From positions 6,272-70,271 of the forward strand of contig CAYMAV010000001.1 in NCBI GenBank assembly GCA_964388545.1: a stretch of DNA of 64,000 nucleotides, given 5' to 3'. Made by a program: the position numbers and the translations under genes. The stretch comes from an uncultured Clostridium sp. (GTDB lineage Bacteria; Bacillota_I; Bacilli_A; RF39; UBA660). Numbering within the stretch: the first letter of the stretch is position 1; every line of letters begins with the position of its first letter. Below, piece by piece: positions 1 through 24,585 of this stretch. The notes beneath the pieces are model-generated. The model saw nothing but the letters and a program-made list of their open reading frames with translations, ran no database searches and was not told where the DNA came from.

Positions 1-3000
1 TAGTATCAACTACTAAATTCCCTCCAACAGTACTTTGAGTAAAATTAGTTCTTACATTAAGATAAATATTATCACCTAGATAAACATTATTACTTAAAAG
101 ACTAGAGTTAAGTTCCAAAATCGGATCCTTATTAGTATAGATATTATATATTAATTGTTGTTGCTGAATTCCTATTACCGAAGTTATTATTTGATTATCC
201 GAACTTCTTAACTCCAAAATCATCATCTTGTTGATAACATCCTCATTTATTCCGGCATTCTTAAAATCAAAGATAAATATAAACTCTTCTTCAGCATAAG
301 TATTCTTCCAATATATTTGATTTTTCACCGCATCATCATAATTATTTGTTTGCGTAGTGCTTCCCATTTTTATAAATTTAGATAATTTATAGGCAGCATC
401 TCCATGATCAGCTATTTCAACTCCTTTATCAATATAATCTTGGGCGGTTACAACATAGTAATAGTATTCTGGAAGTGAACCCTCTCGAAGGTCGATCATC
501 GTAATTTTTGTGTTTTCTGGTAAATTATATGTTGAAGATAACACACGATGATACCCTGGTTTATAAATAGTTGTATCTGCTTCTGCATATAAAGAATAAT
601 AAGTTGAAAAACTACTAGTTGAGGTAATATTTACAAGGCTTGTTGGAAACATCTCATATTTTTTACCAGAAGAAATTGTACCCTCATACTCATTACTTTG
701 ATATAATGCTCTATTTAAAGTTACATTTATATTAATTCTTTTAACCTCATTATTTAAATCATCAATTGGAATAATAGCAACTAACGAAATAACTCCTGTT
801 CCCATTTCACCAGATGTTTGTAAGTTTTTGGAGTGATATAAATAAAATAATAAAGTTGGAACCCCGCTTGAATTTTCTTTTTTATAGTTAATACTTCCAC
901 TTATTCTTTCTTCATTTGTTAAAAAAGTTGTTCTACTGTCAGTTACCCATCCTGTATCACTGCTTTCCATTACAAGACTCATAATCCTATCAGCATCCGC
1001 TGAGTTATCGGCTACTCTTGGAATATTTTCTTTTTCAACCAAATTAATATCACTATTAATGCCATCATAATTAAAATTTAAAATTGAAAAAGCAGTATTT
1101 GGATTGGAAAAATTAATTAATGGTAGTTCATAAATACCTAAAGTCGAATATTTAGATGCGGTTAATGTTATATCAAAAGATGCAACTTGTTCACCTATCG
1201 CCCAAATATAGTAGTTAGAATCCTCAGGAGTAGGCTCTACAAAATCAACATAAATTCTATCTGGGTCATTTTTATCATTAAAGACACTATAAAAACCATC
1301 GACCTCATAATTATGATTAATTTTATGAAGACCTAAAACATAACTACCTTTATCAAAATATAAAAGATCTTGGGAAGGCACGATGCTATCATTATTGTAA
1401 TTTGTTTTATAAATTGCCGTATAAACCTTACCATCTCGATCATAACCATACATTCCGAAGAAAGTCATACCAACAACCTCACCATAGGCAGTTATATTTT
1501 CATTAGTTGCAATATTAATATTTTTTCCACCATAGACAAAAAGTTTATTATTAACGTTTCTTGTTACATTTCCATTATCGTCTATTGTTATTATCTCTGG
1601 AGTTTCCAGATTATTTACAATAACCGAACTAGTAAATTTTTTTAACAGATTTGTTCCTGTTTCTAAATATAAAACCGAATTATTAGTTAATTTTAAGCTA
1701 TCAACCCTACTTATTGAAAAAAGCACATCCGAATACTCGTTAGTTCTGTCGGTTGCACCATTAAGCTCAATTACCGAATTACTTAAAGTAACATTTTGAG
1801 CCCTTTGAATTGAAACATTCTTTTTATAATTTGCTTCTGTTCCATAATTTTTTATTAAAATATTGCTATAACCACTAGTACTTGATGCATTTCCGCTACC
1901 AAAAATCGAACCATTAATATTAAATACGGAATGACTTTCGGCATCGATTTTTATATTAATTCCTACCGTTACCGAAATAAAAGTAAAGTCATAAACTTCC
2001 GATCCAGAAGCATTTGCCTCTCCTCCGCCAAATACCGTCCCTCCGATATTTATATTTCCTCTTTTTAACAAGTTATTAATTAAGGTATTAGCTCCAATAT
2101 TTACATTAGCAACTCCATATAAAACCGAAGTATTAGCTCCTCCATAAACATTTCCACCACAAGTAAGACCTGCGATATTTACAACACTTGAAGAATTATT
2201 TAAATCTTCTCTTCCCGTTACTGCAGCATTCCCGCCACCAAAAATATGATTAGTTACTGTTGTTACACCATCGACATTTAAAGTAGTATTTCCATATACC
2301 GTAGCACTTTGACCATTACCTCCACCATAAACACTATGACCGATAATAGAATCCGTAATATGAAGAATAATATTTCCTCTTACTTCTCCTAAGTTTCCGC
2401 CACCATAAATAGAATTTGTTATTCTTGTGTTTTCAACTTTTACATCGACATTATTTTCAACAAACGACTGATTTCCACCACCAAAAACCGATCCACTTAC
2501 ATCGGCATTTCCAACATTTAAATTTACTCTGCTAGTTGGCGCATTATTTCCACCGCCATAAATATCCTTTATATTTCCATAATCGATATTTAAAATAGCA
2601 TTACTTGTTATACCGCCTTGATTATTTCCACCATAAATATAAGTTATATTTGGTTTGTTAGTTGATACCTCAACATTTACATTAGCAGTTGTAACATCTC
2701 CTGCTCTATTAGAGCCACCAAATAAATTTTGAATTTTTACTCCACCTCTAACAATTACATTAGAAGTTGTAACAGAAGCTTCGTTTCCTCCGCCATAAAC
2801 ATTAATAATAGTACCAGTATTCTTTTGTAATATTACATTACTTGTTGTACTATTAGCGTGATTTCCACCACCAAATATATTCGAAATTAATCCTCCATTT
2901 ATCAAGAGATTTGAGCTCTGAGTTAAACCACCATAATTGTTACCACCATAGATATTTGTAAAAGTACCATTAACTGTTTCAATATTAGAACTAACAACCG

Positions 3001-6000
3001 TTCCACTTTGATTAGATCCTCCATAAGTTGTATTAACTATTCCACCCAACAATCTAATATTTGAGCTTTCCGTAATTCCGGCTTGATTTCCTCCACCATA
3101 GATTTCTCCAACAGTTCCAGAGTTCATAACAACATTAGATTTTCTAACATTGGCAAGATTTCCACCACCATAAACAGTGTTTATATTAGTACCACCATTA
3201 ATAACTACATTAGTCTCATCAGATATAGCTTCGTTTCCTCCGCCATAAACTAAAGGAACTTCTCCACCATTTAAAGTAACATAGGAAAGCAAAGTTGTAC
3301 CACCTAGGTTATTACCGCCATAAATCTGATTAGCTTTTCCACTTGTAGTTATAATATTAGAAGCATTAACTGTTCCACTTTCATTAGACCCCCCATATAT
3401 TTTATCAATTGTCGAACCTTTTAAATTAACATTTGTTGTCGTTGCATCTGATCTATTACATCCACCAAAGGCATTAGTTGATACTCCACCATTTAAATTA
3501 ACAGTAGCCGTATTAATAGGTGCATAATTTCCTCCACCATAAAGATTGTTTACTGTTCCACCATTTAAATTTACAGTTATCGTTCCATTAGGTGTACCTT
3601 TAACATCGTTCGCTCCCAACGCGTTATTAACTGTTCCTCCATTAATATTTACCGTAACATTTCCCAAAACATATGGAGTTGTATTTTGATCTCCTTCGCC
3701 ACCACCAAATAAAGCTCCTTCTACGGTTCCTTTATTCATATTTACGGTTGTTGTGTAAGGACTTACATTGCTGTTTGCAACAGTTCCATTAACTACTCCT
3801 AAAGCACTTCCACCATAAACTCTATTTACAATTGGACTTGCTGGATAATTAACATCCCCAATATTAACAACAACATTTTCACTAACAAAAGTACCAGAGT
3901 TTGTTCCCGATACTCCACCTTTTCCACCACCATAGATGCTACCTGCAACTATACCGCCATTAATATCTAAATTAGTACTTCCATGTATTGTTCCACTAAA
4001 ATTACTTCCGCCATAGATACTACCTAAAACATTTCCATCAAGCATTTTAATATATATTTGAGATTTTTTGCTAGTACTTCCCGAACCATTTCTATTTCCA
4101 CCACCATAAATATCTTGGGAAATTGTTCCTCCTAATACATTAATTTTACTTTGAGTTGTTGTTTGACTACCACTTATACCAGTAGCACCAAAATTTCCAC
4201 CACCGTAAACAGAATTTAAAACATTAGCATCTTCATCGATTATTACAAAGGAATTATAAGCTGTCCCAATTGTCGAATACCCATTTCTTCCATTTCCAAT
4301 ACCAAAAACATTACCAGCTGTTGCACCATATAAAGTAAGATTAGCTGCAACAACATCAGGATCTCCTACCATTACATTACCACCAACATAAATAAATGGA
4401 TTGCCTCTTAATGTTCCATCTCCCTCAGAACCAGTATAAGCATTACTTCCACCAAATACATTGTAATTGATCTTACCACCAGTTAATTGAATTATCCTGT
4501 TACCATAGGTTGCTGTAAGTCCTGCTCCTCCAAATACTGCATCGATATTTCCTCCCATTATATAGATATAACTATCATTTAGATTTTCGCGACTAGAATC
4601 CGTTAAAGGTCCTGCTATTAAATTATAGATATAACCACCTTCAACACGACCCATTCTTGATGTGTAATGAGTCCCAGCGTATCTCCCACCGATATAAATT
4701 CCAAAACTATAATCCGTTTTTAATGTTCCAAAACTTCCGCTTTTTACAACAGTATTAAAAGAACTAACATCATTGTTAGAATAATAGTTTCCACTCCAAG
4801 ATCCACCAGCACAAAAATAAAATGTAAGATTAGAATTGTTTTGAGTTATCCTGTCATAGTCATTTCCATAAATACCTTTAGCAAGAACATAATTAGTTGT
4901 TGTACTCCAGGAAGTTGATGCACCATTTGTTAATGATAATGAACTATAGGGTCCACTTTCTACTATCAATTTATACTTTTTAGGATTACTACTACTTCCC
5001 ATACTGCTGTTAGTCCCACCAATAATTGACCTAAAAGCAACGCGAGTTGAACCGCCCGCAGTTATTCCTCTTCCAAGCTTTAGATTATATCCATTACCAT
5101 AAATTGATCTTGTGGTACTAGTAGAACTAGATGGATTATATTCTCCTCCATATGAAGCTGAATAAATATTAATATTTTCTATTCTAACATCGCTATACAA
5201 GTTAACCGCACGGCTACTTATTGTCCATGTCGCCCCACTTACACTACCATTATTTAAAGTAGTTAAAGTAAATGGTTTTGTATTACTATTCCATGTATAG
5301 CTATTATTACTATTCATAACAACGATATTGGTATCTCTAGTAACTAGATAATAATAATCTTTATAGATATCTAAATAATTAGCATTCCCTGCTTGATCTG
5401 CGTATTGAATTAATCTATATAAAGTACATCCGGTTGAGGAATTACAAGTCCCCGACATCAAATTTCCCTGATTATCATATAAACCCGTTATACTTGAATA
5501 CCTTGGAATAATAACCTGCTCATAATAGCCTGACATAACAAAATTATTATTAAAATCATTATGATATGTAATGCTATCTATTTCAAAAACTATCGTATTA
5601 ATGTTAAGCGGTGTCATACCAGTTGCTACTAGATAATAATAATTTGATGATGGTGTTACACCATAATATAGATACTCGGTTTCTGGGGGATTTAGGCTAT
5701 AATAGGTACATCCACCCCAAGAATTACAATAGCAACTGCTTCCTTGCAAACTCCCATAATAATCATAATAACCACTACAACTAGAATTTCTAGGAACAGT
5801 TACTTGTTTATAATATCCCACTAAATCATAAGGTTTATAATTAATAGTATGAGTGTTAATCTTAACCATACTTATATTTTTTAATCCGTTTAAAGCATTA
5901 TTCCAAGACGATGAATTATTAGTTGTTATATAAGAAGTCGTAGCCTCAGTCCAACTAGCATAAAAGTTTACTATCGTAGCATCCGGTATATCCCCATCGT

Positions 6001-6571
6001 AGGTGATGGGAATCTTGGCAAACCTTTCATAGTAAATATTATCAAAGGATATTTCACCATTAGTATAATTTGTATACCAACCATTAAAAGCTTTATTAGA
6101 TGGTCTATTAGAAAAAGGATTATCGATTAACTCTATTAAGATATAATCATCCTCTTTATTAGTGGGAGTACCATTATTATTAACTAGAAAATAATTATAA
6201 TAAACATATAGATATTGAGATTCCGTATTAGATACATATCCTTTTAATCCGTTATTAATATCTTCACCACTATAAATAACCTTAGTCTCAACTAAGTTAA
6301 ATTCATTATAAATATTTTGGTTTTCTCCACTTGGAAGAGCGTTATAGGTAGTAGTTGTATAATTTAGACCTTTATAATAGTTTAGATCTCTTTCTGAATC
6401 ATTAATATAAATTGTCTCTCCAACAATACCAGAAGCTTCTTTTTGCAGTTTAGAGACAAATTCCCCGTGGCTTTTTAAAAAAGTTGAGAGTGCTATTGCT
6501 AGAAACAAAAAAGACAAAAAGAAAAAAACTACTTTTTTTAATTTGATAAGTTCTATTCTTTTTATCTTCAT
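1..6571 (-). CDS. Giant secreted/surface repeat protein (N-terminal >=2190 aa; C-terminus beyond window start). Signal peptide followed by a Cys-rich duplicated module, then >35 tandem ~25-aa YGGGN beta-solenoid-type repeats, then a non-repeat C-terminal region.
   Basis: Minus-strand ATG at 6571-6569 preceded by RBS GAGGGG (revcomp of 6576-6581). Translation begins MKIKRIELIKLKKVVFFFLSFLFLAIALSTFLKS. The frame stays open through position 2. Repeat signature is visible on the + strand as recurring ccaccaccataaa / ccgccataaa about every 75 bp between ~1900 and ~4900. Absent from the ORF track because there is no stop codon in the window. Confidence 0.7.
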   Translation of the reverse strand, partial: MKIKRIELIKLKKVVFFFLSFLFLAIALSTFLKSHGEFVSKLQKEASGIVGETIYINDSERDLNYYKGLNYTTTTYNALPSGENQNIYNEFNLVETKVIYSGEDINNGLKGYVSNTESQYLYVYYNYFLVNNNGTPTNKEDDYILIELIDNPFSNRPSNKAFNGWYTNYTNGEISFDNIYYERFAKIPITYDGDIPDATIVNFYASWTEATTSYITTNNSSSWNNALNGLKNISMVKINTHTINYKPYDLVGYYKQVTVPRNSSCSGYYDYYGSLQGSSCYCNSWGGCTYYSLNPPETEYLYYGVTPSSNYYYLVATGMTPLNINTIVFEIDSITYHNDFNNNFVMSGYYEQVIIPRYSSITGLYDNQGNLMSGTCNSSTGCTLYRLIQYADQAGNANYLDIYKDYYYLVTRDTNIVVMNSNNSYTWNSNTKPFTLTTLNNGSVSGATWTISSRAVNLYSDVRIENINIYSASYGGEYNPSSSTSTTRSIYGNGYNLKLGRGITAGGSTRVAFRSIIGGTNSSMGSSSNPKKYKLIVESGPYSSLSLTNGASTSWSTTTNYVLAKGIYGNDYDRITQNNSNLTFYFCAGGSWSGNYYSNNDVSSFNTVVKSGSFGTLKTDYSFGIYIGGRYAGTHYTSRMGRVEGGYIYNLIAGPLTDSSRENLNDSYIYIMGGNIDAVFGGAGLTATYGNRIIQLTGGKINYNVFGGSNAYTGSEGDGTLRGNPFIYVGGNVMVGDPDVVAANLTLYGATAGNVFGIGNGRNGYSTIGTAYNSFVIIDEDANVLNSVYGGGNFGATGISGSQTTTQSKINVLGGTISQDIYGGGNRNGSGSTSKKSQIYIKMLDGNVLGSIYGGSNFSGTIHGSTNLDINGGIVAGSIYGGGKGGVSGTNSGTFVSENVVVNIGDVNYPASPIVNRVYGGSALGVVNGTVANSNVSPYTTTVNMNKGTVEGALFGGGEGDQNTTPYVLGNVTVNINGGTVNNALGANDVKGTPNGTITVNLNGGTVNNLYGGGNYAPINTATVNLNGGVSTNAFGGCNRSDATTTNVNLKGSTIDKIYGGSNESGTVNASNIITTSGKANQIYGGNNLGGTTLLSYVTLNGGEVPLVYGGGNEAISDETNVVINGGTNINTVYGGGNLANVRKSNVVMNSGTVGEIYGGGNQAGITESSNIRLLGGIVNTTYGGSNQSGTVVSSNIETVNGTFTNIYGGNNYGGLTQSSNLLINGGLISNIFGGGNHANSTTSNVILQKNTGTIINVYGGGNEASVTTSNVIVRGGVKIQNLFGGSNRAGDVTTANVNVEVSTNKPNITYIYGGNNQGGITSNAILNIDYGNIKDIYGGGNNAPTSRVNLNVGNADVSGSVFGGGNQSFVENNVDVKVENTRITNSIYGGGNLGEVRGNIILHITDSIIGHSVYGGGNGQSATVYGNTTLNVDGVTTVTNHIFGGGNAAVTGREDLNNSSSVVNIAGLTCGGNVYGGANTSVLYGVANVNIGANTLINNLLKRGNINIGGTVFGGGEANASGSEVYDFTFISVTVGINIKIDAESHSVFNINGSIFGSGNASSTSGYSNILIKNYGTEANYKKNVSIQRAQNVTLSNSVIELNGATDRTNEYSDVLFSISRVDSLKLTNNSVLYLETGTNLLKKFTSSVIVNNLETPEIITIDDNGNVTRNVNNKLFVYGGKNINIATNENITAYGEVVGMTFFGMYGYDRDGKVYTAIYKTNYNNDSIVPSQDLLYFDKGSYVLGLHKINHNYEVDGFYSVFNDKNDPDRIYVDFVEPTPEDSNYYIWAIGEQVASFDITLTASKYSTLGIYELPLINFSNPNTAFSILNFNYDGINSDINLVEKENIPRVADNSADADRIMSLVMESSDTGWVTDSRTTFLTNEERISGSINYKKENSSGVPTLLFYLYHSKNLQTSGEMGTGVISLVAIIPIDDLNNEVKRININVTLNRALYQSNEYEGTISSGKKYEMFPTSLVNITSTSSFSTYYSLYAEADTTIYKPGYHRVLSSTYNLPENTKITMIDLREGSLPEYYYYVVTAQDYIDKGVEIADHGDAAYKLSKFIKMGSTTQTNNYDDAVKNQIYWKNTYAEEEFIFIFDFKNAGINEDVINKMMILELRSSDNQIITSVIGIQQQQLIYNIYTNKDPILELNSSLLSNNVYLGDNIYLNVRTNFTQSTVGGNLVVDT

Positions 6572-6582
6572 ATTAATCCCCT

Positions 6583-7584
6583 CTATGCTGGATTTATTGT
6601 AAATTGTAAATTAAATACAATGTCATCAAAGGATGCTCCATCTTCGCAGTCAACATCCTGTCCTTCAATCCACATATATATTCTTACTTTTGTTATTCCT
6701 TGTTGTAATCTAAATATTTGTTTAAATTGATCAAAATTCTTTTCAGTATAATAATCAATATTTACTCTTTTAAAATAATTTGGATATTTAGTTTGATTAG
6801 CATCTTTTACATTTACACCAATATCCTTAGTAAATGCGCTTATTAGTCCATCATATGGAATTTGTGGTCCATTAGTATTAGGAATAGTAATTCCGTAGAC
6901 ACTTTGAGCATGTGCTACTGCTGCATCGGTATGAACATCATAATTAGGTTCCCAAATATAAGTAGTAGCAGGAGTTGCTCCCTTAAGAGCTTGTACAACG
7001 GCTGGATTAGTACCTATCGGACGAGTTCCTTGTATCAAATAGGCAACTCTTGTAGAAGCTGCTATTCCTTTTTCTGAATTAGTATCCATATAGACAACAT
7101 TTGAATTAGTACTCATATAAATATCAATATCGTTAAAAGTTCTAAAGAATAGATCAAAAGCGATAAACTTACCAATACTAGTACTCCCATGACTTTCAGT
7201 TTCAATATTTCTTGTCGATGTTAAAATATTATTTCCATCTTCATCGCTTTCCGCTGTACCATAATACATTTTTAGAAAACCAGTAGTTGCATCTATTTCT
7301 TTTCCAGTTGATACCGGCTCCATTCGATCAGGAATTTGATTTGTACTTCCTAGATAACCTTGATCTCTAGCTGAAATTATATCTTCAGGATCTACTACCG
7401 TTGTCCAATTTATCGCATTTGATGATATTTCTATACCACCCGATGCCTCGACATGAATATTAATGCTTCTGATAGTTACAATTCTATTATGAGTAAACCA
7501 AGCATAAGTCGAGGTCGAAAGCATAATCGCCGTAAGTAACAATAAAAATATAAAAAAGTATACTCTTCTTTTATTAATCATCAT
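6583..7584 (-). CDS. TasA/camelysin-like secreted protein (SipW-cognate-type signal peptide)
   Basis: N-terminus MMINKRRVYFFIFLLLLTAIMLSTSTYAWFTHN resembles the TasA/CalY signal region (GTWAAFND / GTFAFFSD). C-terminal segment NLQFTINPA resembles the TasA-family C-terminal (L/I)(Q/E)(F/W)(S/T)F motif. Lies 12 bp upstream of the giant gene on the same strand. Confidence 0.55.
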   Translation of the reverse strand: MMINKRRVYFFIFLLLLTAIMLSTSTYAWFTHNRIVTIRSINIHVEASGGIEISSNAINWTTVVDPEDIISARDQGYLGSTNQIPDRMEPVSTGKEIDATTGFLKMYYGTAESDEDGNNILTSTRNIETESHGSTSIGKFIAFDLFFRTFNDIDIYMSTNSNVVYMDTNSEKGIAASTRVAYLIQGTRPIGTNPAVVQALKGATPATTYIWEPNYDVHTDAAVAHAQSVYGITIPNTNGPQIPYDGLISAFTKDIGVNVKDANQTKYPNYFKRVNIDYYTEKNFDQFKQIFRLQQGITKVRIYMWIEGQDVDCEDGASFDDIVFNLQFTINPA

Positions 7585-7590
7585 TACCTC

Positions 7591-8298
7591 CTATTTATTT
7601 TCTATATGCTCTTCTTTAATATTCATATGAAGTTTAATTTCTCCACCGATAATTGCGTTAACACAATCCGGATCATCACCTTCAAGCCATATTACAATTG
7701 TAAACTTATCAACATCATTAGGTTTAAAATCCTTCCTACTTTCTAATATTGCTATATCATCATCTTTTTCGTAAAACGGCTTTGTCTCTGGTTCTGGTTC
7801 TTTAGTATGACTATTAATCTTGGCATACACAGTTCTTTCTCCATTATGATAAACCATAATACGAACTGCTTCATCAACATTTTTAATGACATCATCTATT
7901 ATGATTTCATACCAGTAATTAATTATTCTTTTACCATCGTTTTCAACGTAAAAAGTATAGGCAATATAGTTTTGACCATTATGAGATCCATCTTTTTCGT
8001 TATGTATATCTTTAGGTAACCACTTAATTGATATATTATCCATAAACTTTATCTCATCCGCATATAATCTTCTTTTAGAGTCTCTAGCCTCGCTATTATC
8101 ATATAAAACAATACCTGATTCTAGTGCTAGATTATTATCAAGGGTAATTACAAAACGACCACCCTTATAAATAATCGACAAAACTATAAAAGTTAAAGTC
8201 ATTAAAACAAAGATTATTAAACCTATTCTTTTAGTTCTTTTTAATCTTTTTTTTCTATTATAAACTTTATCTGCTGTTACTATTATTTCCTTAGCCAT
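7591..8298 (-). CDS. Membrane-anchored paralog of the TasA-like protein (type II anchor; shares the C-terminal W(I/L)EGxDxDC motif)
   Basis: Basic N-terminus KRLKRTKR followed by a TM helix IGLIIFVLMTLTFIVLSIIY. C-terminal IVIWLEGDDPDCVNAIIGGEIKLHMNI parallels YMWIEGQDVDCEDGASFDDIVFNLQFTI in the 6583..7584 protein. 7-bp gap to the next gene. Confidence 0.55.
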   Translation of the reverse strand: MAKEIIVTADKVYNRKKRLKRTKRIGLIIFVLMTLTFIVLSIIYKGGRFVITLDNNLALESGIVLYDNSEARDSKRRLYADEIKFMDNISIKWLPKDIHNEKDGSHNGQNYIAYTFYVENDGKRIINYWYEIIIDDVIKNVDEAVRIMVYHNGERTVYAKINSHTKEPEPETKPFYEKDDDIAILESRKDFKPNDVDKFTIVIWLEGDDPDCVNAIIGGEIKLHMNIKEEHIENK

Positions 8299-8436: not shown

Positions 8437-9753
8437 ATGAAAAAAATATCAAAAACTATATCATTTAGTTTCCTGTTTATTATAATACTTATGTTTTTAC
8501 AAATTTTAACAGGAATAGCTACTAATAGTATATTATCTTTACCTAGAGGTATAGATATAATAGCACAAGCTTTTATGAGTGTATTTACGCTAGTAATACT
8601 ATTGCTTTTTGGAAATTCATATGTTTTCAAACAAGAAAAAGAAAAAACAAGAAAAGGTTTATTTTATGGTTTATTCTTTATAATTACTCTTATTCTTATA
8701 ACAATAGCAAATAGTAAAGGATTTTCTTATATACCATCTGTAATTAACCTTTTAATATTTTCGTTTTTGGTTGGTCTTTCAGAAGAGTTATTATGTAGAG
8801 GGTTTTTACTTAATGAACTATTAGAAAAATTCGGTCAAACAAAAAAAGGAATATGGTTTTCTATAGTATTTAGTGGATTCCTTTTTGGTATTATACATAT
8901 TACTAATGTACTTGGTGGAGAACAAGATTTAATTTCTACTATAATCCAAGTAATAAGTGCTACTTCGGCAGGAATGGCATTTGGAATAATTTACTTTAAA
9001 ACTAAAAATATATGGTCATTAATAATATTACATGCTCTATGGGACTTTGCTATATTTCTTGGAGATTTAGTTCCAACAATGGAAATATTTGAAAAAGTTG
9101 TTGTAACATCACCACTTGTTTATCTAAGTTCAATATTAATGTTTGTTGCTAACTTGACTGTTGTAATGCCCTTTGTAAAAAATATTGATGAAGAGCCTAA
9201 AAAGAAAAAAATCGTTATTTGGAGCATAGTAGGAGTTTTACTTGTTTTTGCTGCAGGTATTATTGGTAACATTGATGCTAAACAAGGTCAAAAATATGTA
9301 TTCTATGAAAAGGAAATAAAAGACTTCTCAATTACTACTGTATATAAAGAAAAGCATTTGGTGAGCAATGAAAATGCCACAATTAGTTTATCTTTTAAAG
9401 ATTTTGAACTAACTCTTAAAAACGAAAAAACTAATTATTCTAAAAAATTAGATGTCAAGAATTTAAATAATTATACTGTCGTTGAAAAAGAAAGTAGCTG
9501 CATCATAGCATTCACAAATTCTGTTGATGGTAATTATTATTTAAATTATTATGAAATAAATAAAGTCGATTTAAACGATAGTAATGAATTAATTGACTCA
9601 ATAGAAAAAGGATTTAATAAACATTTATTAAAAAATTCTGGAACACAATTAAATGCGTTAAAAGATGAAAACAATAAATTATATTTACATATTGTTGATT
9701 ATGATTATAACAATTATATATTAGATGATAACAAATTATATATTCTAAAATAA
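8437..9753 (+). CDS. CPBP family (CAAX/Abi) intramembrane metalloprotease with a C-terminal extracytoplasmic extension
   Basis: Three CPBP motifs: LSEELLCRGF (EExxxR), FGIIHITN (FxxxH) and LHALWDF (HxxxD/N-type). Multiple TM helices. About 150 aa of soluble C-terminal extension. Confidence 0.8.
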   Translation: MKKISKTISFSFLFIIILMFLQILTGIATNSILSLPRGIDIIAQAFMSVFTLVILLLFGNSYVFKQEKEKTRKGLFYGLFFIITLILITIANSKGFSYIPSVINLLIFSFLVGLSEELLCRGFLLNELLEKFGQTKKGIWFSIVFSGFLFGIIHITNVLGGEQDLISTIIQVISATSAGMAFGIIYFKTKNIWSLIILHALWDFAIFLGDLVPTMEIFEKVVVTSPLVYLSSILMFVANLTVVMPFVKNIDEEPKKKKIVIWSIVGVLLVFAAGIIGNIDAKQGQKYVFYEKEIKDFSITTVYKEKHLVSNENATISLSFKDFELTLKNEKTNYSKKLDVKNLNNYTVVEKESSCIIAFTNSVDGNYYLNYYEINKVDLNDSNELIDSIEKGFNKHLLKNSGTQLNALKDENNKLYLHIVDYDYNNYILDDNKLYILK

Positions 9754-9878: not shown

Positions 9879-10463
9879 ATGAAAAAAAAGAAATATCTTT
9901 TGTTGATTTTAGCAGTTTTTTCAATTTGTTTTACAGTTTCAACTATTAATGAGACCTATGCTAAATATGTTAGTAGTGCTAGATCAACAACATTAACTTC
10001 AATAGCAAGATGGAAAATCGTTGTAAATGAAAACGATATTTCTTTAGGTGCATCTACAACTAATTTTATAACACCTGTCTTTCCAGGAAGTGACCATATA
10101 AAAGAGGGGGTTATCGCTCCAAATGTAGAAGGTTATTTTGATTTAGTACTGGATGCTACTAATGTAGATGTATCATTTAATTATAAAATAAATATTGTTC
10201 AATCAGAGACTAACCCAGTAAAAGAATTGGTGGCAACAAGATATACTATTAATAACGGAGAGGCGGTTTTATTTCAAAATGGAATTCAAGAAATTAATGA
10301 AACCATTTTATTTACCTCAGTAGATAGAATAGCCAATATTAGAGTTTATGTTAAATGGGATGATAGCCTTAATTTAATGAATAATAGTGAGGATACTGAT
10401 ACAACTATAAATAACCAAAAAGGAATGATTGAAGTCGTTGTATCTGCTATTCAAATAGAATAA
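9879..10463 (+). CDS. Small secreted protein with a signal peptide and a TasA-like cleavage-region motif (ETYAKY)
   Basis: MKKKKYLLLILAVFSICFTVSTINETYAKY with RBS GAGGAG. The TYAKY motif echoes the TYAWF motif of the 6583 protein. Confidence 0.55.
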   Translation: MKKKKYLLLILAVFSICFTVSTINETYAKYVSSARSTTLTSIARWKIVVNENDISLGASTTNFITPVFPGSDHIKEGVIAPNVEGYFDLVLDATNVDVSFNYKINIVQSETNPVKELVATRYTINNGEAVLFQNGIQEINETILFTSVDRIANIRVYVKWDDSLNLMNNSEDTDTTINNQKGMIEVVVSAIQIE

Positions 10464-10500
10464 AAAAAGTTAATATTATCTATTAACTTTTGTACTATAC
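10464..10500. terminator. Bidirectional hairpin terminator between convergent genes
   Basis: AAAGTTAATA / TATTAACTTT stem flanked by an A-run (5') and T-rich sequence (3'). Confidence 0.4.
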
Positions 10501-11309
10501 CAATATGGATTACCATCTGGTCTTGTTTTAAACACATGGGTAAATGTATTACATTTATCTTTATTTTTTGTGTAATATTCTTTTGCGTTTTCAATCGCAT
10601 TATCAAAATCCTGCTCACTACTAGAGTTTACTCCAATAAACTCTTTTATTTGACTTTTTTCAAAATCTGTTGAACTAAAGTAGCTTGCTTGAATAATGTC
10701 CATAACTAGAAAACATGCATTTTCTTCTATTATTATTTCACCATTATTTTTAGTCATTGAATTTATAGTATTAAATTTAGTAATCGAACCAGCTCCCGCA
10801 CCATAAAAAGAGACATAATATGGTTCGAAGTAATAGGCAACTCCACCAGGAAGTGGAATTTCATCAGCTTTAACATTCTCAATGTTATAAAGTTTTTTCA
10901 ATGTAAGATTTACATCATCTATATGATAATATCCATCACCAGTACATTCATCATCAGGTCCTTCTCCGCATGATTCTCTTTTTACTTTTGGTTTATTTTC
11001 CTCTGTAAAAGGTCTCTTTTCAGTAGACATTAATGCAAGTGACACAATAGTCTTTTTAGGAATTGTATCAGTTGTATAATCATGTCCAGAGTAAGCATCG
11101 AATTGGGGCTCTATAGTCGTAGAGTTAAAAAATGGTACTCCTTCTAAATATTCATTCGCTTCCTTCTCATTTGTTACGGCTGGTTTTTCTTTTTCTAATT
11201 TTGTCTTACTATCACTTGATGTAAAGAAATTAAGATAAACTAGTACTCCTATTATTAATAGTAAAACTACATAACTTGCTATTAACAAGTATTTTTTATT
11301 ATTTGTCAT
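10476..11309 (-). CDS. Hypothetical membrane-anchored extracytoplasmic protein
   Basis: N-terminal TM helix YLLIASYVVLLLIIGVLVYL. Contains a Cys cluster CGEGPDDECTGDGYYH. Confidence 0.5.
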   Translation of the reverse strand: MTNNKKYLLIASYVVLLLIIGVLVYLNFFTSSDSKTKLEKEKPAVTNEKEANEYLEGVPFFNSTTIEPQFDAYSGHDYTTDTIPKKTIVSLALMSTEKRPFTEENKPKVKRESCGEGPDDECTGDGYYHIDDVNLTLKKLYNIENVKADEIPLPGGVAYYFEPYYVSFYGAGAGSITKFNTINSMTKNNGEIIIEENACFLVMDIIQASYFSSTDFEKSQIKEFIGVNSSSEQDFDNAIENAKEYYTKNKDKCNTFTHVFKTRPDGNPYWYSTKVNR

Positions 11310-11339
11310 TTTTCCTCCTTTTTATAACTAAACAAAGAT

Positions 11340-11627
11340 CTATCTAAATCTTTGGGATTTTTTAACTTTTACATAATAATTAACTGGTATCTTTTTGGAA
11401 ATTTCCCATAGTCGACAAACACTGCAATTTCTTGAAAACTCCATGTTAGAATCAATTTCCCAATTGGAAAATTCATGTCCAAAAGTTGTGCAAATTTTAT
11501 TATTTATTTCTCTTAACTCATCTTTCTTAGATTCTAAAATCTTATTAGAAAGGTCTACTTCTGATAAAATCTCTTCTCTTTTTCTAAAAAGATACTCTTT
11601 TATTTCAATTACATCATTATTTTTCAC
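11340..11627 (-). CDS. Small Cys/His-containing hypothetical protein (possible zinc-ribbon), translationally coupled to the ABC-2 permease
   Basis: Contains KICTTFGHEF...CSVCRLW. 1-bp gap to the upstream permease gene. Confidence 0.45.
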   Translation of the reverse strand: MKNNDVIEIKEYLFRKREEILSEVDLSNKILESKKDELREINNKICTTFGHEFSNWEIDSNMEFSRNCSVCRLWEISKKIPVNYYVKVKKSQRFR

Positions 11628-14899: not shown

Positions 14900-16066
14900 T
14901 TACCATTTTGTTTTTTTCTCCCAAAATTTAATATATGAAAGAATTCTTTTTAGTAAAACTTTTTTACCAGAAAAAGTATGTTTATACAAGGCTTTTTTAT
15001 ATCCTTTATTTTTGTAAATATTATAGAAATTTACACTATTTGGATTGATCTTTGTTGGTTGCTGAAGATTATGTTGTAAACCATATTTAATATCCGCCTT
15101 TAAACAATCTAAATTATCTTTTAATTTATCAAAAATATCTAAGCCTTTTTTTGAATTGATTAATAATATTGATACTCCCTTATTATCAAAAAAATTTTTA
15201 TATTTTTCTTCTCCCTTCCAAAAATCACCTATCGTTAAATCGGATACTCTATCAACATTTGAATAATGACAGTTATAACAGGAATCCCTTAAACATAAAT
15301 TATTTTGAAATAGCTTTGGATATCTTTGTGAAAAAACAGAAATTGAATCTTCTTTATTATTTAAAATTATATTTTCTACATGTGATTTCCATCCATATTT
15401 TTTACATCTAAACTCATAATCAACTAATTTGTTTTTGTATTTTTTTTCAATTAGATCAACATGATCTTTCCACATACCTGGTGCCATTACACCATGACAG
15501 ATAATATCACATAATATTAAATTATTATAATCTTTTTTTAAAAAAGAACGTAATCCAGCAACTTGACAAGGAGTCCCCGTAAATAAAACTAATCTTTCTT
15601 CTTCTAAATCTTTTTTTAGTTGAAAAAATATATTTAAATCTAAATCACTTTGAACATATTTAGATTTCCTTAAACTATCTCTTCCTTTTTTATCAGTAAC
15701 TCTTTTGTGAATTACCTTCATATCTGAGTCAAATCCAACTCCATAGACAATACCTTTATTTTTTAAAACATAATCTGAAATCGCCGTAAACATCCCACCT
15801 GATGTACTATTATTTCTTACATCAAGATCTTTATGCTTAATAGCATAGCATTCTTTTAATGTATTTTTCATTTTATCAAATTTTTCTTTACTAAAGGGAC
15901 ATGTTTTAACACAAAGCCCACATTGAATACATTTATCATGATTAATTTTTGGATATTTAAATCCCTTATCATCCATAACCATATCAATAGCAGAAACTGG
16001 ACAAACATTTTTACAAGCTGTGCAACCTGAACACTCATCCTTTTTCTTAAAAACTTCTTCTATCAT
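14900..16066 (-). CDS. Coenzyme F420 hydrogenase/dehydrogenase beta-subunit-like 2x[4Fe-4S] protein (pyruvyl-transferase partner in polysaccharide loci)
   Basis: CSGCTACKNVCP and CIQCGLCVKTCP ferredoxin motifs at the N-terminus. FrhB-like C-terminal domain. 4-bp overlap with wzx. Confidence 0.7.
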   Translation of the reverse strand: MIEEVFKKKDECSGCTACKNVCPVSAIDMVMDDKGFKYPKINHDKCIQCGLCVKTCPFSKEKFDKMKNTLKECYAIKHKDLDVRNNSTSGGMFTAISDYVLKNKGIVYGVGFDSDMKVIHKRVTDKKGRDSLRKSKYVQSDLDLNIFFQLKKDLEEERLVLFTGTPCQVAGLRSFLKKDYNNLILCDIICHGVMAPGMWKDHVDLIEKKYKNKLVDYEFRCKKYGWKSHVENIILNNKEDSISVFSQRYPKLFQNNLCLRDSCYNCHYSNVDRVSDLTIGDFWKGEEKYKNFFDNKGVSILLINSKKGLDIFDKLKDNLDCLKADIKYGLQHNLQQPTKINPNSVNFYNIYKNKGYKKALYKHTFSGKKVLLKRILSYIKFWEKKTKW

Positions 16067-17589
16067 ATTTTCTTTCTCCTAAATATCAATAGTATTTTTT
16101 TATAAGCACTCTTTAACATATTATTTTCAAGAACAAAATCAAAAAGCAGAATAATTATAATAGAGAACATCATTGAGATAATAGCATAAATAAGCCAATC
16201 AAAATAAGTATTAGTATTAAACATAAAATAATTTCCTATAAAATAAATAGATGCTCCTAAAATAAAAACTTTTATAATTCTTAAAATTGTAGTTATTCTA
16301 TTTGTTTTAGTAATATATTTAGGAACAAAATAAATTAAATCAATGGTTCTATAAATATTTGATAATATGGAAGCAAATAAAATACCATTTATTCCATATT
16401 TTGGAGTTAAAAGAACTCCAAATATTAAAATTATTAAGGCTTGAATAGTAGTTTGAACTTTAGTTTCTTTATACATTCCAGATGAGTGAATAAGCATGCC
16501 TTGAGGAGTTTTTAAATTATATAACAGACCATTTAATACAAAGAGCAATGCTGTTGTTGGTAAAATATAATTAGCATCTGTTATTCCTTTTGTAAATAAT
16601 CTAATGAAAGGTATTATTAAGACATAAGTTAAAGAATAGGAAATGGTTAATAAATTATAATAAACATACTCAAATAAATTATAAGATTCCCTTAATGTCT
16701 TATCTTCTTTTTTAGCAATTATTTCACCAAAAGACGATGACAACCCACTAATAAATATAGATAATAGATTATTAACACCCATCATTATCATGTTATAAAT
16801 CGTATAAATACTAACACTTATTAAGTCTGAAAATATCGTTAAAATAATATATGGGCTTCCATTTTGAAATGAACCTAATATCTGAAGGTATAAAGCATCC
16901 CATCTCTTTTTTAAAAGATCCTTTTTTGGTTTTAAATTAAAATTAAGATCTTTATATTGTTTTTTTACATATAGTATTAGAATAATAGATCTTGTTAAAA
17001 CCGAGAATAATGCAAAAAATCTAACTATAATAATATCCATGCCTAAAACAGAAAATAGTAAAATAATTAAAGTGTTAATAACAATTCCTATAATAGATGC
17101 AATTGAAATAACATATAATCTTTGATCAGCAGTTAAAAGCGTTCTATATTTGGCAAGAGTAAAAAAGTCTAATATTCCACTCGCACCAATTATAAATACT
17201 AAAGCAATAATTTGAAATTTATTCATTACATCAGTAGAAACAATTAAAGGATAAAATACTGCTAATATTGTTACTAATAATAGAAAAATTAATCCAGATT
17301 TATAATAAAAATGTTTTGTTGTTGATACTACTTCGTTAATTTCCTTTTTATTTTTATTAGCTAACGGTTTGTAAAGAGCAAAAACTGATGCTGCAGAAAG
17401 GCCAGCCTCTACAACCGAAAAATAATTAATAAATTGAGTTACCGAGGATACCAACCCATTTATACTTGATCCATAATAAACTAACATTATTTTAGGAACA
17501 ATAAAACCAGCTAACATTGATACAACGGAAAGCAAAGCAGAAAAAAACACATTAATAAAAAACTTTCTAGTTCTAGTCAATTTATTCAC
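16063..17589 (-). CDS. Wzx-type polysaccharide flippase (MOP superfamily)
   Basis: 508 aa with about 12-14 TM helices, typical polysaccharide-biosynthesis-protein architecture. Confidence 0.7.
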   Translation of the reverse strand: MNKLTRTRKFFINVFFSALLSVVSMLAGFIVPKIMLVYYGSSINGLVSSVTQFINYFSVVEAGLSAASVFALYKPLANKNKKEINEVVSTTKHFYYKSGLIFLLLVTILAVFYPLIVSTDVMNKFQIIALVFIIGASGILDFFTLAKYRTLLTADQRLYVISIASIIGIVINTLIILLFSVLGMDIIIVRFFALFSVLTRSIILILYVKKQYKDLNFNLKPKKDLLKKRWDALYLQILGSFQNGSPYIILTIFSDLISVSIYTIYNMIMMGVNNLLSIFISGLSSSFGEIIAKKEDKTLRESYNLFEYVYYNLLTISYSLTYVLIIPFIRLFTKGITDANYILPTTALLFVLNGLLYNLKTPQGMLIHSSGMYKETKVQTTIQALIILIFGVLLTPKYGINGILFASILSNIYRTIDLIYFVPKYITKTNRITTILRIIKVFILGASIYFIGNYFMFNTNTYFDWLIYAIISMMFSIIIILLFDFVLENNMLKSAYKKILLIFRRKKI

Positions 17590-18679
17590 CTAATGCTTTA
17601 AATAGAAAATTTAAAGATTTTTCCCTTTCTTTTTGTAGAATATTTCCAACTTCATTATAATCTATTTCCTTTTTTATTATCTCATAAGATTTTTTTGAAT
17701 CATCAATTATTCTGCTATCCAATGATAGTTTATTTAGCAAATCTCTTTGCCTACTACCTCTTGTTTTATGTAATATAGTTGCAAATTTTTTATTTAAGAC
17801 TATCGATAGACAAACCCCATGAAAGGAATTTGTTATAACATAAGCGCTTTCATTCATAAAACTTAAAAAGTTTTCCGGAGAAACCTTAGTATCATTTAAC
17901 AATTCTCTTTCAAATTTATAATCAGAACCTACCAATACTACACCCATATCTAATTTATTAGATAAGAGATTAACCGTATCAATAATGTCTTGATTAACCT
18001 CCAACATATAAACAAAAATATATTTTTCTTTAATTAATTTTTCATGAGAAATATCTAGCCAATTTATTTTATCCAATAAAAGAGTTGGATCTAGAACTAC
18101 TTCAATTTTTTTATCATTTAAATTTTTCCTTAAACTTTTCTCACGCACACTAATAAAAGAGTAATCTTTTATATCTTTTTTTAGTTTTTCTATAACTTTT
18201 TTTCCAGGATTATCCTCACCCAAACTAGCACTATAAGATATCTTATTAGCATTATCAAAAAAACTTAAATTATATACACTACTATCATCATTAGTAATTT
18301 TTGCATTCCAAACCTGATCACTACCCGTAATTAAATAGTCATATTGTTTTGACAATAACTTTAACTCGTCTTTATCATTAATCTTCTTAGATATTTTAAT
18401 ATTTTTATTTACAAAACTTTTAAACCTTAATCTTCTCTTATTTGTTTTAGGTAACAAAATTAATCTTTTAAATATCTTTAATGGCTTCAAATAAAATCTT
18501 TCATTATCTGAAAATTCAAATATTCCTTTGTAGTCAAAACCATATACATCGTTAGAATAATAATCGATTACTTCAGTATCATAACCTTTATCATTTAATA
18601 CTTTATTAAGAGCATATGTTTGGAATACTGCCCCATAATTTAGTGCACGATGAAAAGTTAACACACCTATTTTTTTCAT
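17582..18679 (-). CDS. Polysaccharide pyruvyl transferase (CsaB/WcaK family)
   Basis: MKKIGVLTFHRALNYGAVFQTYAL N-terminal hallmark of PS_pyruv_trans. Confidence 0.75.
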   Translation of the reverse strand: MKKIGVLTFHRALNYGAVFQTYALNKVLNDKGYDTEVIDYYSNDVYGFDYKGIFEFSDNERFYLKPLKIFKRLILLPKTNKRRLRFKSFVNKNIKISKKINDKDELKLLSKQYDYLITGSDQVWNAKITNDDSSVYNLSFFDNANKISYSASLGEDNPGKKVIEKLKKDIKDYSFISVREKSLRKNLNDKKIEVVLDPTLLLDKINWLDISHEKLIKEKYIFVYMLEVNQDIIDTVNLLSNKLDMGVVLVGSDYKFERELLNDTKVSPENFLSFMNESAYVITNSFHGVCLSIVLNKKFATILHKTRGSRQRDLLNKLSLDSRIIDDSKKSYEIIKKEIDYNEVGNILQKEREKSLNFLFKALGE

Positions 18680-18686
18680 AAATACC

Positions 18687-19682
18687 TCACTTATATTTTG
18701 CTTTAGGTATAAACCAAAACAACATTAATCCCAAAGTATAATTAAATCTTTTTAAATATTTTCCTTTTAAACCAAATTTTAAATATTTATTTTTTTTATA
18801 ATCTGGAAATTTTTCTTTAACATTCTTTATTGCCAACTTTAACAGTTTTTTATATTTACCAAAATCTTTTCTTTTATTTGCTAGTTTTGCTGCACTACCA
18901 AGCATTGTTGCGTATATATATCTTACATATGAATATTCTAATTCTTCCTTATATTTATTATATATCTTTTTTTCTTTATAAAAATCTATTATTCCATTCA
19001 TATTTTCAATATAATTTGCTATTCTATCATCAAAACTTTTGGATATTCCACCTTTTCTTTGATAATAATTGTAAAAAGGCTTTTTTACAACACCTATTGA
19101 TTTTATATATGGTAACAGTCTATAAAGCATTTCAACATCCTCAAACCAAACACCTTTTTTATACCACAAATCATTATCTATGAATAAAGATTTTTTATAT
19201 ATTTTATTCGTGGCAGTTGGATAAAAGTTTATAAAAATATTTTTATATTCATCAACGTTTAATATATCACTATCTAAACTGCATGAAATTGTTCTATTTC
19301 TACTTACATCATCATAATATTCTAAGGTGTCGCAACAAACTAAATCAAACCCTTTTTCTATTTTTTCATACATATCACCAACCATATTTTCATCAATCCA
19401 ATCATCACTATCTAAAAACATGATATAATCTGCATTCGATTTTTTTATTCCGTAGTTTCTAGTATCACTAAGACCGCCATTCTTCTTTTCATAGGCTTTG
19501 ATTATTTTAGGATACTTTTTTTCATACTTATCAATTATTTTTTGAGAACTATCCGTACTACCATCATTTACAACAATAGCTTCAGATTCTTTGAAATTTT
19601 GCTTAACTACACTATCTAAACATTTTTCTAAATATTTTTCCATATTATAAACAGGTATAATTAAACTAACTTTTGCCTTCAT
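18687..19682 (-). CDS. Glycosyltransferase family 2
   Basis: SLIIPVYNMEKYLEKCLDSVVKQ, VVNDGSTD, DSDDW motifs. Confidence 0.8.
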   Translation of the reverse strand: MKAKVSLIIPVYNMEKYLEKCLDSVVKQNFKESEAIVVNDGSTDSSQKIIDKYEKKYPKIIKAYEKKNGGLSDTRNYGIKKSNADYIMFLDSDDWIDENMVGDMYEKIEKGFDLVCCDTLEYYDDVSRNRTISCSLDSDILNVDEYKNIFINFYPTATNKIYKKSLFIDNDLWYKKGVWFEDVEMLYRLLPYIKSIGVVKKPFYNYYQRKGGISKSFDDRIANYIENMNGIIDFYKEKKIYNKYKEELEYSYVRYIYATMLGSAAKLANKRKDFGKYKKLLKLAIKNVKEKFPDYKKNKYLKFGLKGKYLKRFNYTLGLMLFWFIPKAKYK

Positions 19683-23466: not shown

Positions 23467-23476
23467 ATAAACCTCT

Positions 23477-24037
23477 CTATTTAAATATCAATATAATTAA
23501 TCCTATTAAAATCGTAAATAAAAATATTATTCTAGCAGTTATATCTATCTGCCTTGAACCAAATTTCTTAATATCTTTTTCTAAGTTCTTTATCAATTTA
23601 TATGTAGAAGATTCAAATTTTTTAGGATTAAACTTTTGAATCATCTTAATAGCAGTTTCTAAATCATCTAAATTAGTAACTCCAATTATATATCCATCAT
23701 CTGAAAATTTCTCAATTAATTCTACCTGATGATCATTAACATGCTCTTTATATTTCTTTAGTCTTGGAACTCCAATAACTTTTTTATTATTATTTATCGC
23801 CGTTAATATAGTACCAACTCCACCATGAGTAATTATATATCTACTTTCTTTAATTAAATTATCAAATTCATCTCTAGGTATTAAATTGAATACTTCCATA
23901 TTTTTAGATTTATATTCAGTAAATCCTGCTTGAACAACAACTCTTTCATTTATAACTTTTTTATCGATTAATTCATCAACTTTTTCTAATAACCTAACAA
24001 AGGACTTGTCCTGTGTTCCTAACGTAATTAATATCAT
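23477..24037 (-). CDS. Alg13-like glycosyltransferase C-terminal-domain subunit (Cps14G/EpsF-like)
   Basis: Glyco_tran_28_C-like sequence ITHGGVGTILTAI. Paired with the Alg14-like gene (1-bp overlap). Confidence 0.7.
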   Translation of the reverse strand: MILITLGTQDKSFVRLLEKVDELIDKKVINERVVVQAGFTEYKSKNMEVFNLIPRDEFDNLIKESRYIITHGGVGTILTAINNNKKVIGVPRLKKYKEHVNDHQVELIEKFSDDGYIIGVTNLDDLETAIKMIQKFNPKKFESSTYKLIKNLEKDIKKFGSRQIDITARIIFLFTILIGLIILIFK

Positions 24038-24510: not shown

Positions 24511-24560
24511 AAACACCATCCTTGTATTTTTATTATAACATGTTTTATATTTATATAAAA

Positions 24561-24585
24561 TAAAAAAGCACATTTCTGTGCTTAT
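24561..24585 (-). terminator. Hairpin terminator downstream of tRNA-Glu (minus strand)
   Basis: Stem AAGCACA / TGTGCTT with loop TTTC. A-run 24562-24567 on + corresponds to a T-run on minus. Confidence 0.45.

Follow-up and report, generated by a model that had tools for sequence, protein, structure and literature searches.

Tafi loci (Tat-fimbriae, or Tat-dependent bundling pili) of haloarchaea (TafA-G) encode a peptidase (TafD), a membrane accessory protein (TafG), pilins (TafA/E), a large tip adhesin (TafC) and an anchor (TafF) (PMC11821415, PMC12337348). The TafF proteins, which were proposed as the anchors, are membrane-embedded and contain a pilin-like jelly-roll domain into which a donor strand is accepted; those of Natrinema possess one helix only (PMC12337348, PMC11821415). 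In the TasA superfamily, acidic proteins and calcium-assisted strand complementation were reported (AbpX, CanA), and the AbpX homologs, a clade of this superfamily, carry, as position 2 of their donor strand, an aromatic residue that is conserved (bioRxiv 10.64898/2026.01.04.697558). The kinship of AbpA and of the Sulfolobus threads to TasA is visible only with the most sensitive methods (PMC9245690). In Streptococcus pyogenes, the inactive signal-peptidase-like protein SipA/LepA is required for pilus polymerisation (PMC4049620). In our study, we analysed a stretch of 64,000 nucleotides from an uncultured Clostridium sp. (contig CAYMAV010000001.1, positions 6,272 to 70,271), hereafter the window, in which two proteins of 235 and 333 amino acids (f235 and f333) are encoded directly upstream of a giant protein. 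The three genes were found to be conserved as a unit in relatives, many of which also encode a SipW-type signal peptidase nearby, and the TasA/camelysin identity that a preliminary description had given to f235 and f333 is refuted. We regard it as evenly balanced whether the locus encodes a SipW-dependent, Tafi-like assembly of an anchor (f235), adaptors (f333 and the smaller protein f194) and a giant fibre, joined by donor-strand complementation. No published description of this locus was found.

The three-gene unit and its conservation in relatives

The open reading frame (ORF) of f235 lies at 7591..8298 and that of f333 at 6583..7584, both on the minus strand. They are followed by the ORF of the giant protein (1..6571, minus strand), which starts at 6571 and leaves the window at its first position after at least 2190 codons without a stop. 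All three were present as in the preliminary description, and the gaps, given there as 7 bp and 12 bp, were corrected to 6 and 11 nucleotides (nt), respectively. The gap between f235 and f333 (GAGGTA) belongs to a GGAGG ribosome-binding site overlapping the stop codon, and a GGAGG-like site is also present in the gap between f333 and the giant gene (AGGGGATTAAT). No terminator-like site was found at either junction in a scan of the window; the single site found (7062..7043) lies within the coding sequence of f333 and is at chance level. The promoter scan was likewise at chance level (37 found, 32.5 expected). Upstream of f235, a 194-amino-acid ORF (f194; 9879..10463, plus strand) is divergently transcribed.

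A scan of species-representative genomes yielded 527 stretches encoding relatives of f333, and the ORFs were classified in 79 loci; the sources analysed numbered 82 (81 loci and the window). The denominators of the counts are restricted to loci with enough flank and, for SipW, to loci with at least 8 kb upstream. The hosts are almost all uncultured metagenome-assembled genomes (MAGs) from the gut, labelled 'Bacilli bacterium', 'Tenericutes', 'Mycoplasma sp. CAG' or 'Clostridium sp. CAG'. The core module was found to contain f194 (divergent), f235, f333, the giant gene, an ORF of 37–50 amino acids and f502, in this order. The full cluster of about 13 genes has the order f166, f305, f327, a gene of a transmembrane (TM)-anchored AAA+ protein, DUF2357, SipW, f200, (f194 on the opposite strand), f235, f333, giant, the 37–50-amino-acid ORF and f502, and a second set (f166', f194', SipW', SipW'' and f333') sometimes follows it. 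f235 was followed by f333 in 69 pairs with a median gap of -8 nt, and the giant gene was directly downstream of f333 in 56 of 63 loci, so that the three-gene unit proposed earlier is a conserved one. f194, previously noticed as a third protein with a related motif, proved to be a genuine member, divergent upstream of f235 in 57 of 65 loci. A SipW-type gene was present within the upstream 8–10 kb in 29 of 46 loci; in addition, nine solo paralogs of f333 were found 61–122 nt downstream of a SipW-type gene. The window and its two closest relatives, whose f333 copies are 65–68% identical, contain the core only, with unrelated genes flanking it.

The SipW neighbours in the relatives match TIGR02228 at 64.4, 71.0 and 78.1 bits against a cutoff of 51.85, the next best model being that of Bacillus SipW, and they retain the Ser column of SM(x)P and the His column of TH(Q/R). 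The f166 protein (L002:2306-2806; present in 49 of the 82 sources) is a paralog of SipW (hhalign, 98.3%) that has kept both TM helices and lost the catalytic Ser and His columns.

One relative encodes a 365-amino-acid protein (L005:130-1227) in which a peptidase domain of the SipW type (TIGR02228, 78 bits) is fused to another TM segment and to a C-terminal domain rich in beta structure; this last domain has its own TLS↓RF-type motif at the start (↓ marks a verified or predicted cut) and a 'PGD..F.V.N' pattern. An enzyme and a substrate-like domain are thus joined in one polypeptide. Similar proteins of 376–417 amino acids were found in L013, L079, L069, L080, L081 and L085. Between f305 and SipW, a conserved trio (L002:3742-7326) was present in 39–43 of the 82 sources. 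Its first member is a 327-amino-acid protein with no matches, the second (487–516 amino acids) combines a TM segment at its N-terminus with a McrB/AAA_5-like P-loop domain, and the third (370–410 amino acids) is a DUF2357 protein (PF09823, E=1e-12) with no nuclease-domain match.

Predicted cleavage signature, C-terminal motif and relation to TasA

The hydrophobic N-terminus of f333 is followed by STYAWF, and a signal-peptidase site is predicted at T26-Y27-A28↓W29-F30 (7495..7509, minus strand), in which positions -1 and -3 are small and +2 is aromatic. W29 and F30 are invariant, and Y27 and A28 are conserved at 90% or more; [ST][ST][YF]AWF, cut as (S/T)(S/T)YA↓WF, was found in 81 of 84 f333 homologs at a median position of 31. 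The corresponding motifs are N(S/V/A)FA↓WF in f200, (E/Q/D)(T/S)YA↓KY in f194 and (T/S)(Y/F)G↓RY in f305. For f194 of the window the site is predicted at T26-Y27-A28↓K29-Y30 (9954..9968, plus strand), and A28, K29 and Y30 of its ETYAKY are invariant in 36 homologs. In the giant protein, the predicted site S34-H35-G36↓E37-F38 (KSHG↓EF; 6458..6472, minus strand) stands after an N-terminal hydrophobic segment. The N-termini of its homologs read TYG↓A(F/L) or (S/T)Y(G/S)↓(E/D)(F/L), so that the motif of the whole family is TYG↓A(F/L) or (S/T)(Y/H)(G/S)↓(E/D)(F/L). In all secreted families of the locus the motif immediately follows the hydrophobic core; its -1 and -3 positions are small, and +2 is aromatic or, in the giants, also Leu.

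The predicted site of f333, f194 and the others, [ST]-aromatic-[AG]↓x-[FY], has the same form as the verified TWA↓AF of TasA, and the TasA-style signal region noticed earlier in f333 holds in this respect (T-aromatic-A↓x-F). Residues 28–261 of the TasA sequence used are identical to chain A of PDB entry 8AUR, so that mature TasA starts at A↓AFND. The sequences suggest that the locus proteins would be cleaved at the equivalent point. The stretch after the site in f333 is highly conserved and alternating. Residues 21–40 had a pLDDT of 49–62 in the AlphaFold2 (AF2) model, against more than 90 elsewhere, yet they are among the best-conserved positions; such a pairing would be expected if the strand folded only as part of a complex. 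The mature proteins of the window are acidic (pI 4.5–5.0).

f333 has 2927 non-redundant homologs, none with a Pfam domain. Its AF2 model is confident (pLDDT 87.9, pTM 0.85) and contains an N-terminal helix (3–24) followed by a beta-rich body. An invariant polar cluster, W211-E212-x-N214-x-x-x-H218, was found, with P213, Y215, D216 and T219 conserved at 90% or more. In hhalign comparisons, the N-terminal 60–85 columns of f333 match f194 and f200 (92%) and its C-terminal 38 columns match f235 (87.5%). f333 therefore appears to be a secreted beta-rich protein with a predicted SipW/TasA-type signal site, and it may act as an adaptor or pilin-like subunit between the anchor and the giant protein. 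[quoted passage not shown]

f194 is homologous to f200 over the full length (91–95%) and to f333 over the N-terminal part (86–93%). Neither Pfam nor NCBIfam nor the PDB gave a match to it. When f194 was used in an exhaustive phmmer search, 912 representatives at 50% clustering were obtained, of which the 45 most divergent, searched for a bridge to an annotated family, belonged to no Pfam or NCBIfam family. f194 would be a small secreted protein, possibly a minor subunit. Of the giant protein, the N-terminal 2190 of about 2420 amino acids are visible in the window; the full length is 2418–2426 amino acids in the closest relatives and 2300–3279 among the homologs. GG[GSNAC][NGSE] repeats spaced 24–26 residues apart cover residues ~680–1515 as a solenoid-like region whose period is about 25 amino acids, and no Pfam or NCBIfam match was found at E<=1. 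The homologs end in a conserved '...SGTYK.VFSLYD....IG....Y.IIK' domain, and their C-termini contain no TM segment and no LPXTG. The giant protein may serve as a distal fibre or adhesin.

The f235 protein has 3594 non-redundant homologs, none with a Pfam domain. Its AF2 model is fair (pLDDT 77.9), with a helix at 9–44 followed by 12 strands, which together with the basic N-terminal tail agrees with the basic N-terminus and single TM helix described before. The tail is conserved (A9 invariant; K11, R15 and K16 at 90% or more). The motif after the TM segment, IY(K/N)GG(K/R)F, has K/N or Y at -3, and this unfavourable position for signal peptidase I was found in f235 alone among the families of the locus. 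Because of this residue, the 20-residue hydrophobic helix and the conserved basic cytoplasmic tail, f235 is probably kept in the membrane. It is probably an N-in single-pass membrane protein with a basic cytoplasmic tail (1–24), a TM helix (~25–44) and a beta-rich ectodomain, and may act as a membrane anchor or as a terminator of assembly. Its best Foldseek match in the PDB was the bundling pilin AbpA (7UEG; E=3.2e-3, probability 0.95, TM-score 0.28/0.35), and the further weak matches include the PapG pilin domain.

Near the C-terminus, f333 contains W305-I-E-G-Q-D-V-D-C313 (6646..6672, minus strand) and f235 contains W204-L-E-G-D-D-P-D-C212 (7663..7689, minus strand), each holding the only Cys of its protein. 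The pattern [WYF][ILV]EG[DEQN]D[PV][DE]C was present in 84 of 84 f333 homologs and, with the Cys, in 71 of 73 f235 homologs, always about 30 residues from the C-terminus. This frequency is far beyond chance, and the shared block pointed out earlier is real and near-invariant. Exactly one Cys was found in 74 of 84 f333 homologs and 53 of 73 f235 homologs, sited in this acidic motif (6646..6648 and 7663..7665 in the window, respectively). In the AF2 models, the motif of f333 covers the end of strand 296–307 and the loop preceding the last strand (321–329), and that of f235 covers the end of strand 196–205 and the start of helix 210–216, before the last strand (221–229). Pairwise BLASTP of f235 and f333 aligned 17 residues with 8/17 identities (E=0.002). 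Profile-profile homology was confined to 34–38 C-terminal columns, at 59% or 87.5% probability depending on the alignment set. Since homology is limited to this C-terminal module, the two proteins are not paralogs over the whole length, and that term had been overstated. The acidic Cys loop may serve for binding Ca2+ or a different metal, or for joining subunits. An obligatory disulfide between f333 and f235 was not supported, because f235 of one relative (L013) has Thr in place of the motif Cys whereas its f333 copies retain the Cys, and one other f235 homolog has no recognisable motif.

The relation to TasA was examined at several levels. For f333, f235, f194 and the giant protein, PF12389 (Peptidase_M73) gave no match at E<=1; none was present in the 36 f194 homologs, and none at E<=0.01 in the 45 divergent members of the f194 family. 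TIGR04088 (SipW-cognate signal) matched neither the four proteins nor the 36 homologs or the 45 divergent members. As a reference, 120 TasA/CalY homologs were collected, all annotated with PF12389, and 111 of them were aligned. Comparison of f333, f235, f194, f200, f305 and f194big with these 111 sequences by hhalign gave probabilities of 0.1–4.6%, whereas the positive control, TasA against CalY, gave 100%. The TasA signal was not improved with a merged f194+f200 profile (2.0%) or with a 112-sequence f194 profile (1.3%). A TasA-family hidden Markov model (HMM) had no match in the window, and no TasA chain was matched when the family profiles were compared with PDB sequences. In the Foldseek comparison of the f333 and f235 models with the PDB, TasA (5OF1, 8AUR) was not among the matches listed, and nothing was found at E<=1e-3 for either protein. 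Moreover, f333 is about 100 residues longer than mature TasA. The HMM search with Peptidase_M73 and TIGR04088 that the preliminary description had proposed gave no match, and in the structural comparison proposed there TasA was not among the matches listed; membership of the TasA family is refuted. Relaxed hhalign alignments were collinear with TasA, pairing TYA↓KY with TWA↓AF and setting the C-terminal succession of strand, acidic loop and '..F.Q' strand against the C-terminus of TasA; this collinearity is a lead, not evidence.

Proposed assembly and alternative explanations

In the SipW-dependent assembly, the best supported of the explanations, f333, f194 and the giant protein would be exported and cut at [ST]-aromatic-[AG]↓x-[FY] by a signal peptidase of the archaeal/SipW type. 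The cut would expose a conserved N-terminal strand whose second residue is aromatic, and this strand would enter the neighbouring subunit by donor-strand complementation, as in the TasA superfamily and in Tafi pili. f235 would remain uncleaved, held in the membrane by its single helix, and would offer the acceptor side only, namely the C-terminal strand, the acidic (W-x-E-G-x-D-x-D-C) loop and the final strand that it has in common with f333. The outcome would be a membrane anchor, an adaptor and a solenoid fibre of ~2,400 amino acids, held without sortase. The N-terminal homology of f333 to f194 and f200 and its C-terminal homology to f235 fit such donor and acceptor roles, and donor-strand pilins are among the weak structural matches of both f235 (AbpA, the PapG pilin domain) and f333 (7PNB, FimA). 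The conserved gene unit, the SipW linkage in relatives, the shared cleavage-type motif, the acidic pI and the Tafi and TasA-superfamily precedents count in favour of the assembly as well. Cleavage, donor-strand joining and the order of the subunits are what we infer.

Several results weigh against this assembly, the profile comparison with TasA/CalY among them. The Foldseek matches to donor-strand pilins have E values of 3e-3 or worse and TM-scores of at most 0.38, with generic beta-sandwiches reaching comparable scores. To no member of the TasA superfamily was a statistically significant link found, whether in sequence or in structure. The mean column identity of f333 and f235 is 57–60%, with many invariant polar residues (WEPNYDxHT), which is unusually high for exposed pilins and could point to an enzymatic or machinery role. 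The McrBC-like pair in a surface-fibre cluster is left unexplained by the model. No SipW gene was found in the window (SipW-family HMM E>=0.12 on all window ORFs) and none flanks the module in the two closest relatives, so that processing here would need a peptidase encoded elsewhere. The earlier remark that no sipW is nearby is therefore right for the window and wrong as a property of the family, in view of the 29 of 46 related loci with SipW upstream.

The main rival, which we consider somewhat unlikely, is that f235 and f333 are both uncleaved, membrane-tethered accessory factors that form an export, folding or retention platform for the giant protein, with no polymerising or strand exchange, the aromatic motif being a juxtamembrane interaction element. 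The very high conservation with its invariant polar residues, unlike that of typical pilins, fits a platform, and so do the N-terminal helices that AF2 gives to both proteins, the lack of SipW in the window and next to the modules of the closest relatives, and the genes overlapping or only a few nt apart in most loci, which suggests a stoichiometric complex. An uncleaved f333 is harder to reconcile with the region before its motif, which is poorly conserved and has a signal-peptide-like hydrophobic core of ~15 residues, in contrast to the conserved tail and 20-residue helix of f235. Four other families carry the motif as well, and its -1 and -3 positions are small there, just as signal peptidase I demands; moreover, the solo f333 paralogs stand directly behind SipW genes. 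The polar residues also bear on the explanation that f333, possibly with f235, is an extracellular enzyme, either a hydrolase that depends on a metal or a Cys/His transpeptidase that would link the giant protein covalently in place of sortase. We regard an enzyme as very unlikely: f333 has the invariant cluster W211..H218 together with E307-G-Q-D-x-D-C313-E314 and a single invariant Cys, but no sortase, peptidase or hydrolase family was matched in Pfam or NCBIfam, the only enzymes among the Foldseek matches listed are generic glycosidase beta-sandwich domains, and f235 contains the Cys motif without the His cluster. Sortases were reported to be absent from the related orders RFN20 and ML615J-28 (PMC10868615), and covalent bonds between subunits are reported for related fibres such as archaeal threads and BsaA of Clostridium perfringens; both points would favour an enzyme. 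The order of His, Arg and Cys is unlike the sortase arrangement, and a sortase-like reading of these residues was rejected, there being no fold or family match either.

That f333 and f235 are genuine TasA/camelysin (Peptidase_M73) paralogs forming TasA-type biofilm fibres is extremely improbable. The likeness of T-Y-A↓W-F to T-W-A↓A-F, the collinear relaxed alignments and the SipW genes linked in relatives speak for such paralogs; they are outweighed by the missing PF12389 and TIGR04088 matches among the ~85 sequences scanned, by the hhalign values set against their control, by the negative TasA-family HMM, PDB profile and listed Foldseek results, and by the greater length of f333. An unlikely but wider reading is that the locus represents a new class of Gram-positive surface machine. 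In this class, a SipW-processed, strand-exchanged stalk of f235, f333, f194 and related small subunits would moor a beta-solenoid adhesin of ~2,400 amino acids to the membrane, with neither sortase nor a link to the cell wall, the full version of ~13 genes would include the membrane-anchored McrB-like AAA+ ATPase and its DUF2357 partner for assembly or regulation, and the invariant acidic W-x-E-G-x-D-x-D-C loop would act as a metal-dependent or covalent latch.

Surrounding genes and comparison with known systems

Between f235 and f194, the window encodes a 438-amino-acid CPBP/Rce1-like intramembrane protease (8437..9753, plus strand; PF02517, E=7e-22) with a C-terminal extension of ~230 amino acids. 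This gene was also found in contigs of the same species (L007–L010). In the closest relatives (L090 and L091), f194 is close upstream of f235 with no large gene between them. Adjoining f194, a 277-amino-acid protein with an N-terminal TM segment and a 95-amino-acid Cys-containing protein (10476..11627, minus strand) had no family match; L091 contains a 272-amino-acid gene at the position of the former, and in strain L008 this gene is broken into ORFs of 68 and 184 amino acids. Just upstream of the f194 gene of L090, a SLATT_4 and SMODS/AGS_C pair (CBASS-like defence) was found (L090:4876-6680), which suggests that the regions on either side of the module are variable.

Elsewhere the window reads as ordinary low-GC chromosome that encodes GatA/B, iPGM, ArgRS and MnmE/G, five tRNAs, a GGDEF protein and a polysaccharide cluster. 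The cluster (14900..24573, minus strand), assigned by eye from translations, contains nine polysaccharide-biosynthesis-like genes with tRNA genes at its bounds, among them GT2- and GT4-like glycosyltransferases, a flippase-like protein of 508 amino acids, a polymerase-like membrane protein of 563 amino acids and an Alg13/14-like pair. This 14.9–24.6 kb cluster was rejected as a counterpart of the upstream gene set of the relatives, being an ordinary polysaccharide cluster, and the HMMs of every family of the relatives' loci found nothing further in the window beyond the core. The GGDEF protein (24856..26910, minus strand; 684 amino acids) has a C-terminal diguanylate cyclase domain (E=1e-20) and lies ~17 kb from the locus. 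Genes of cyclic di-GMP (c-di-GMP) signalling are reported near bacterial AbpX loci. A phage origin of the locus was rejected; the PDB-sequence matches to Afp and tail fibres were only weak (E>=0.16), and no viral fold was matched.

The f333 and f235 families are large, have no Pfam or NCBIfam annotation and are concentrated in uncultured genome-reduced gut Bacilli and 'Tenericutes' MAGs of humans, ruminants and chickens. The reported absence of sortase in related orders was read as a reduced display of surface proteins (PMC10868615). The SipW-dependent assembly, if true, would show how sortase-poor bacteria attach to hosts or to one another. It would also carry the assembly logic of the TasA/Tafi type into a new lineage of bacteria and apply it to a new cargo, a giant solenoid as against a thin homopolymer. 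The AAA+/DUF2357 pair hints at an energy-dependent step, and to our knowledge no such step is known in any TasA-type system.

The tapA-sipW-tasA operon of Bacillus subtilis (8AUR, 5OF1) resembles the locus in the form of the signal site (T-aromatic-A↓x-F), in the archaeal-type signal peptidase encoded with its substrates (in the relatives), and in secreted acidic beta-rich subunits with a weakly collinear C-terminal strand, acidic loop and strand. It differs in that f333 is larger and fails the PF12389, TIGR04088 and profile-profile tests, the partner here is membrane-anchored whereas TapA is secreted, the giant gene is co-transcribed, and the window contains no sipW. The AbpA/AbpB bundling pili (7UEG) and the Sulfolobus threads (7PNB), which are donor-strand-complemented filaments, gave the best though weak Foldseek matches to f235 and f333. 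However, their TM-scores of 0.20–0.35 are not significant, their hosts are archaeal hyperthermophiles, and there is no dedicated peptidase near abpA. SipA/LepA of S. pyogenes is comparable to f166 of the relatives, an inactive peptidase-like protein inside a surface-fibre locus, but the S. pyogenes pili are covalent and polymerised by sortase, and f166 is not in this window.

The logic of the locus is most like that of Tafi: TafD would correspond to SipW, TafG to the inactive f166, TafC to the giant protein and TafF to f235, with several small pilin-like subunits. The relatives' locus contains the dedicated signal peptidase, the minor or tip subunits and the membrane anchor, whereas the window contains the anchor, the subunits and the giant protein only. 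A membrane-anchored partner, thought unusual in the preliminary description, has a precedent in the TafF anchors (PMC12337348, PMC11821415). The differences from Tafi are that no sequence similarity is detectable, that the hosts here are bacterial gut Bacilli, that the signals look Sec-type and have no twin-arginine motif, that the ~2,400-amino-acid solenoid is far larger than TafC, and that the AAA+/DUF2357 pair of the relatives is not in Tafi loci. If the folds prove to be unrelated to TasA, the locus would stand further from known systems. Otherwise the system would be of a known kind, namely fibres of the TasA-superfamily type that have a peptidase dedicated to them, and the membrane anchor, the giant cargo and the AAA+/DUF2357 components would be what is new here.

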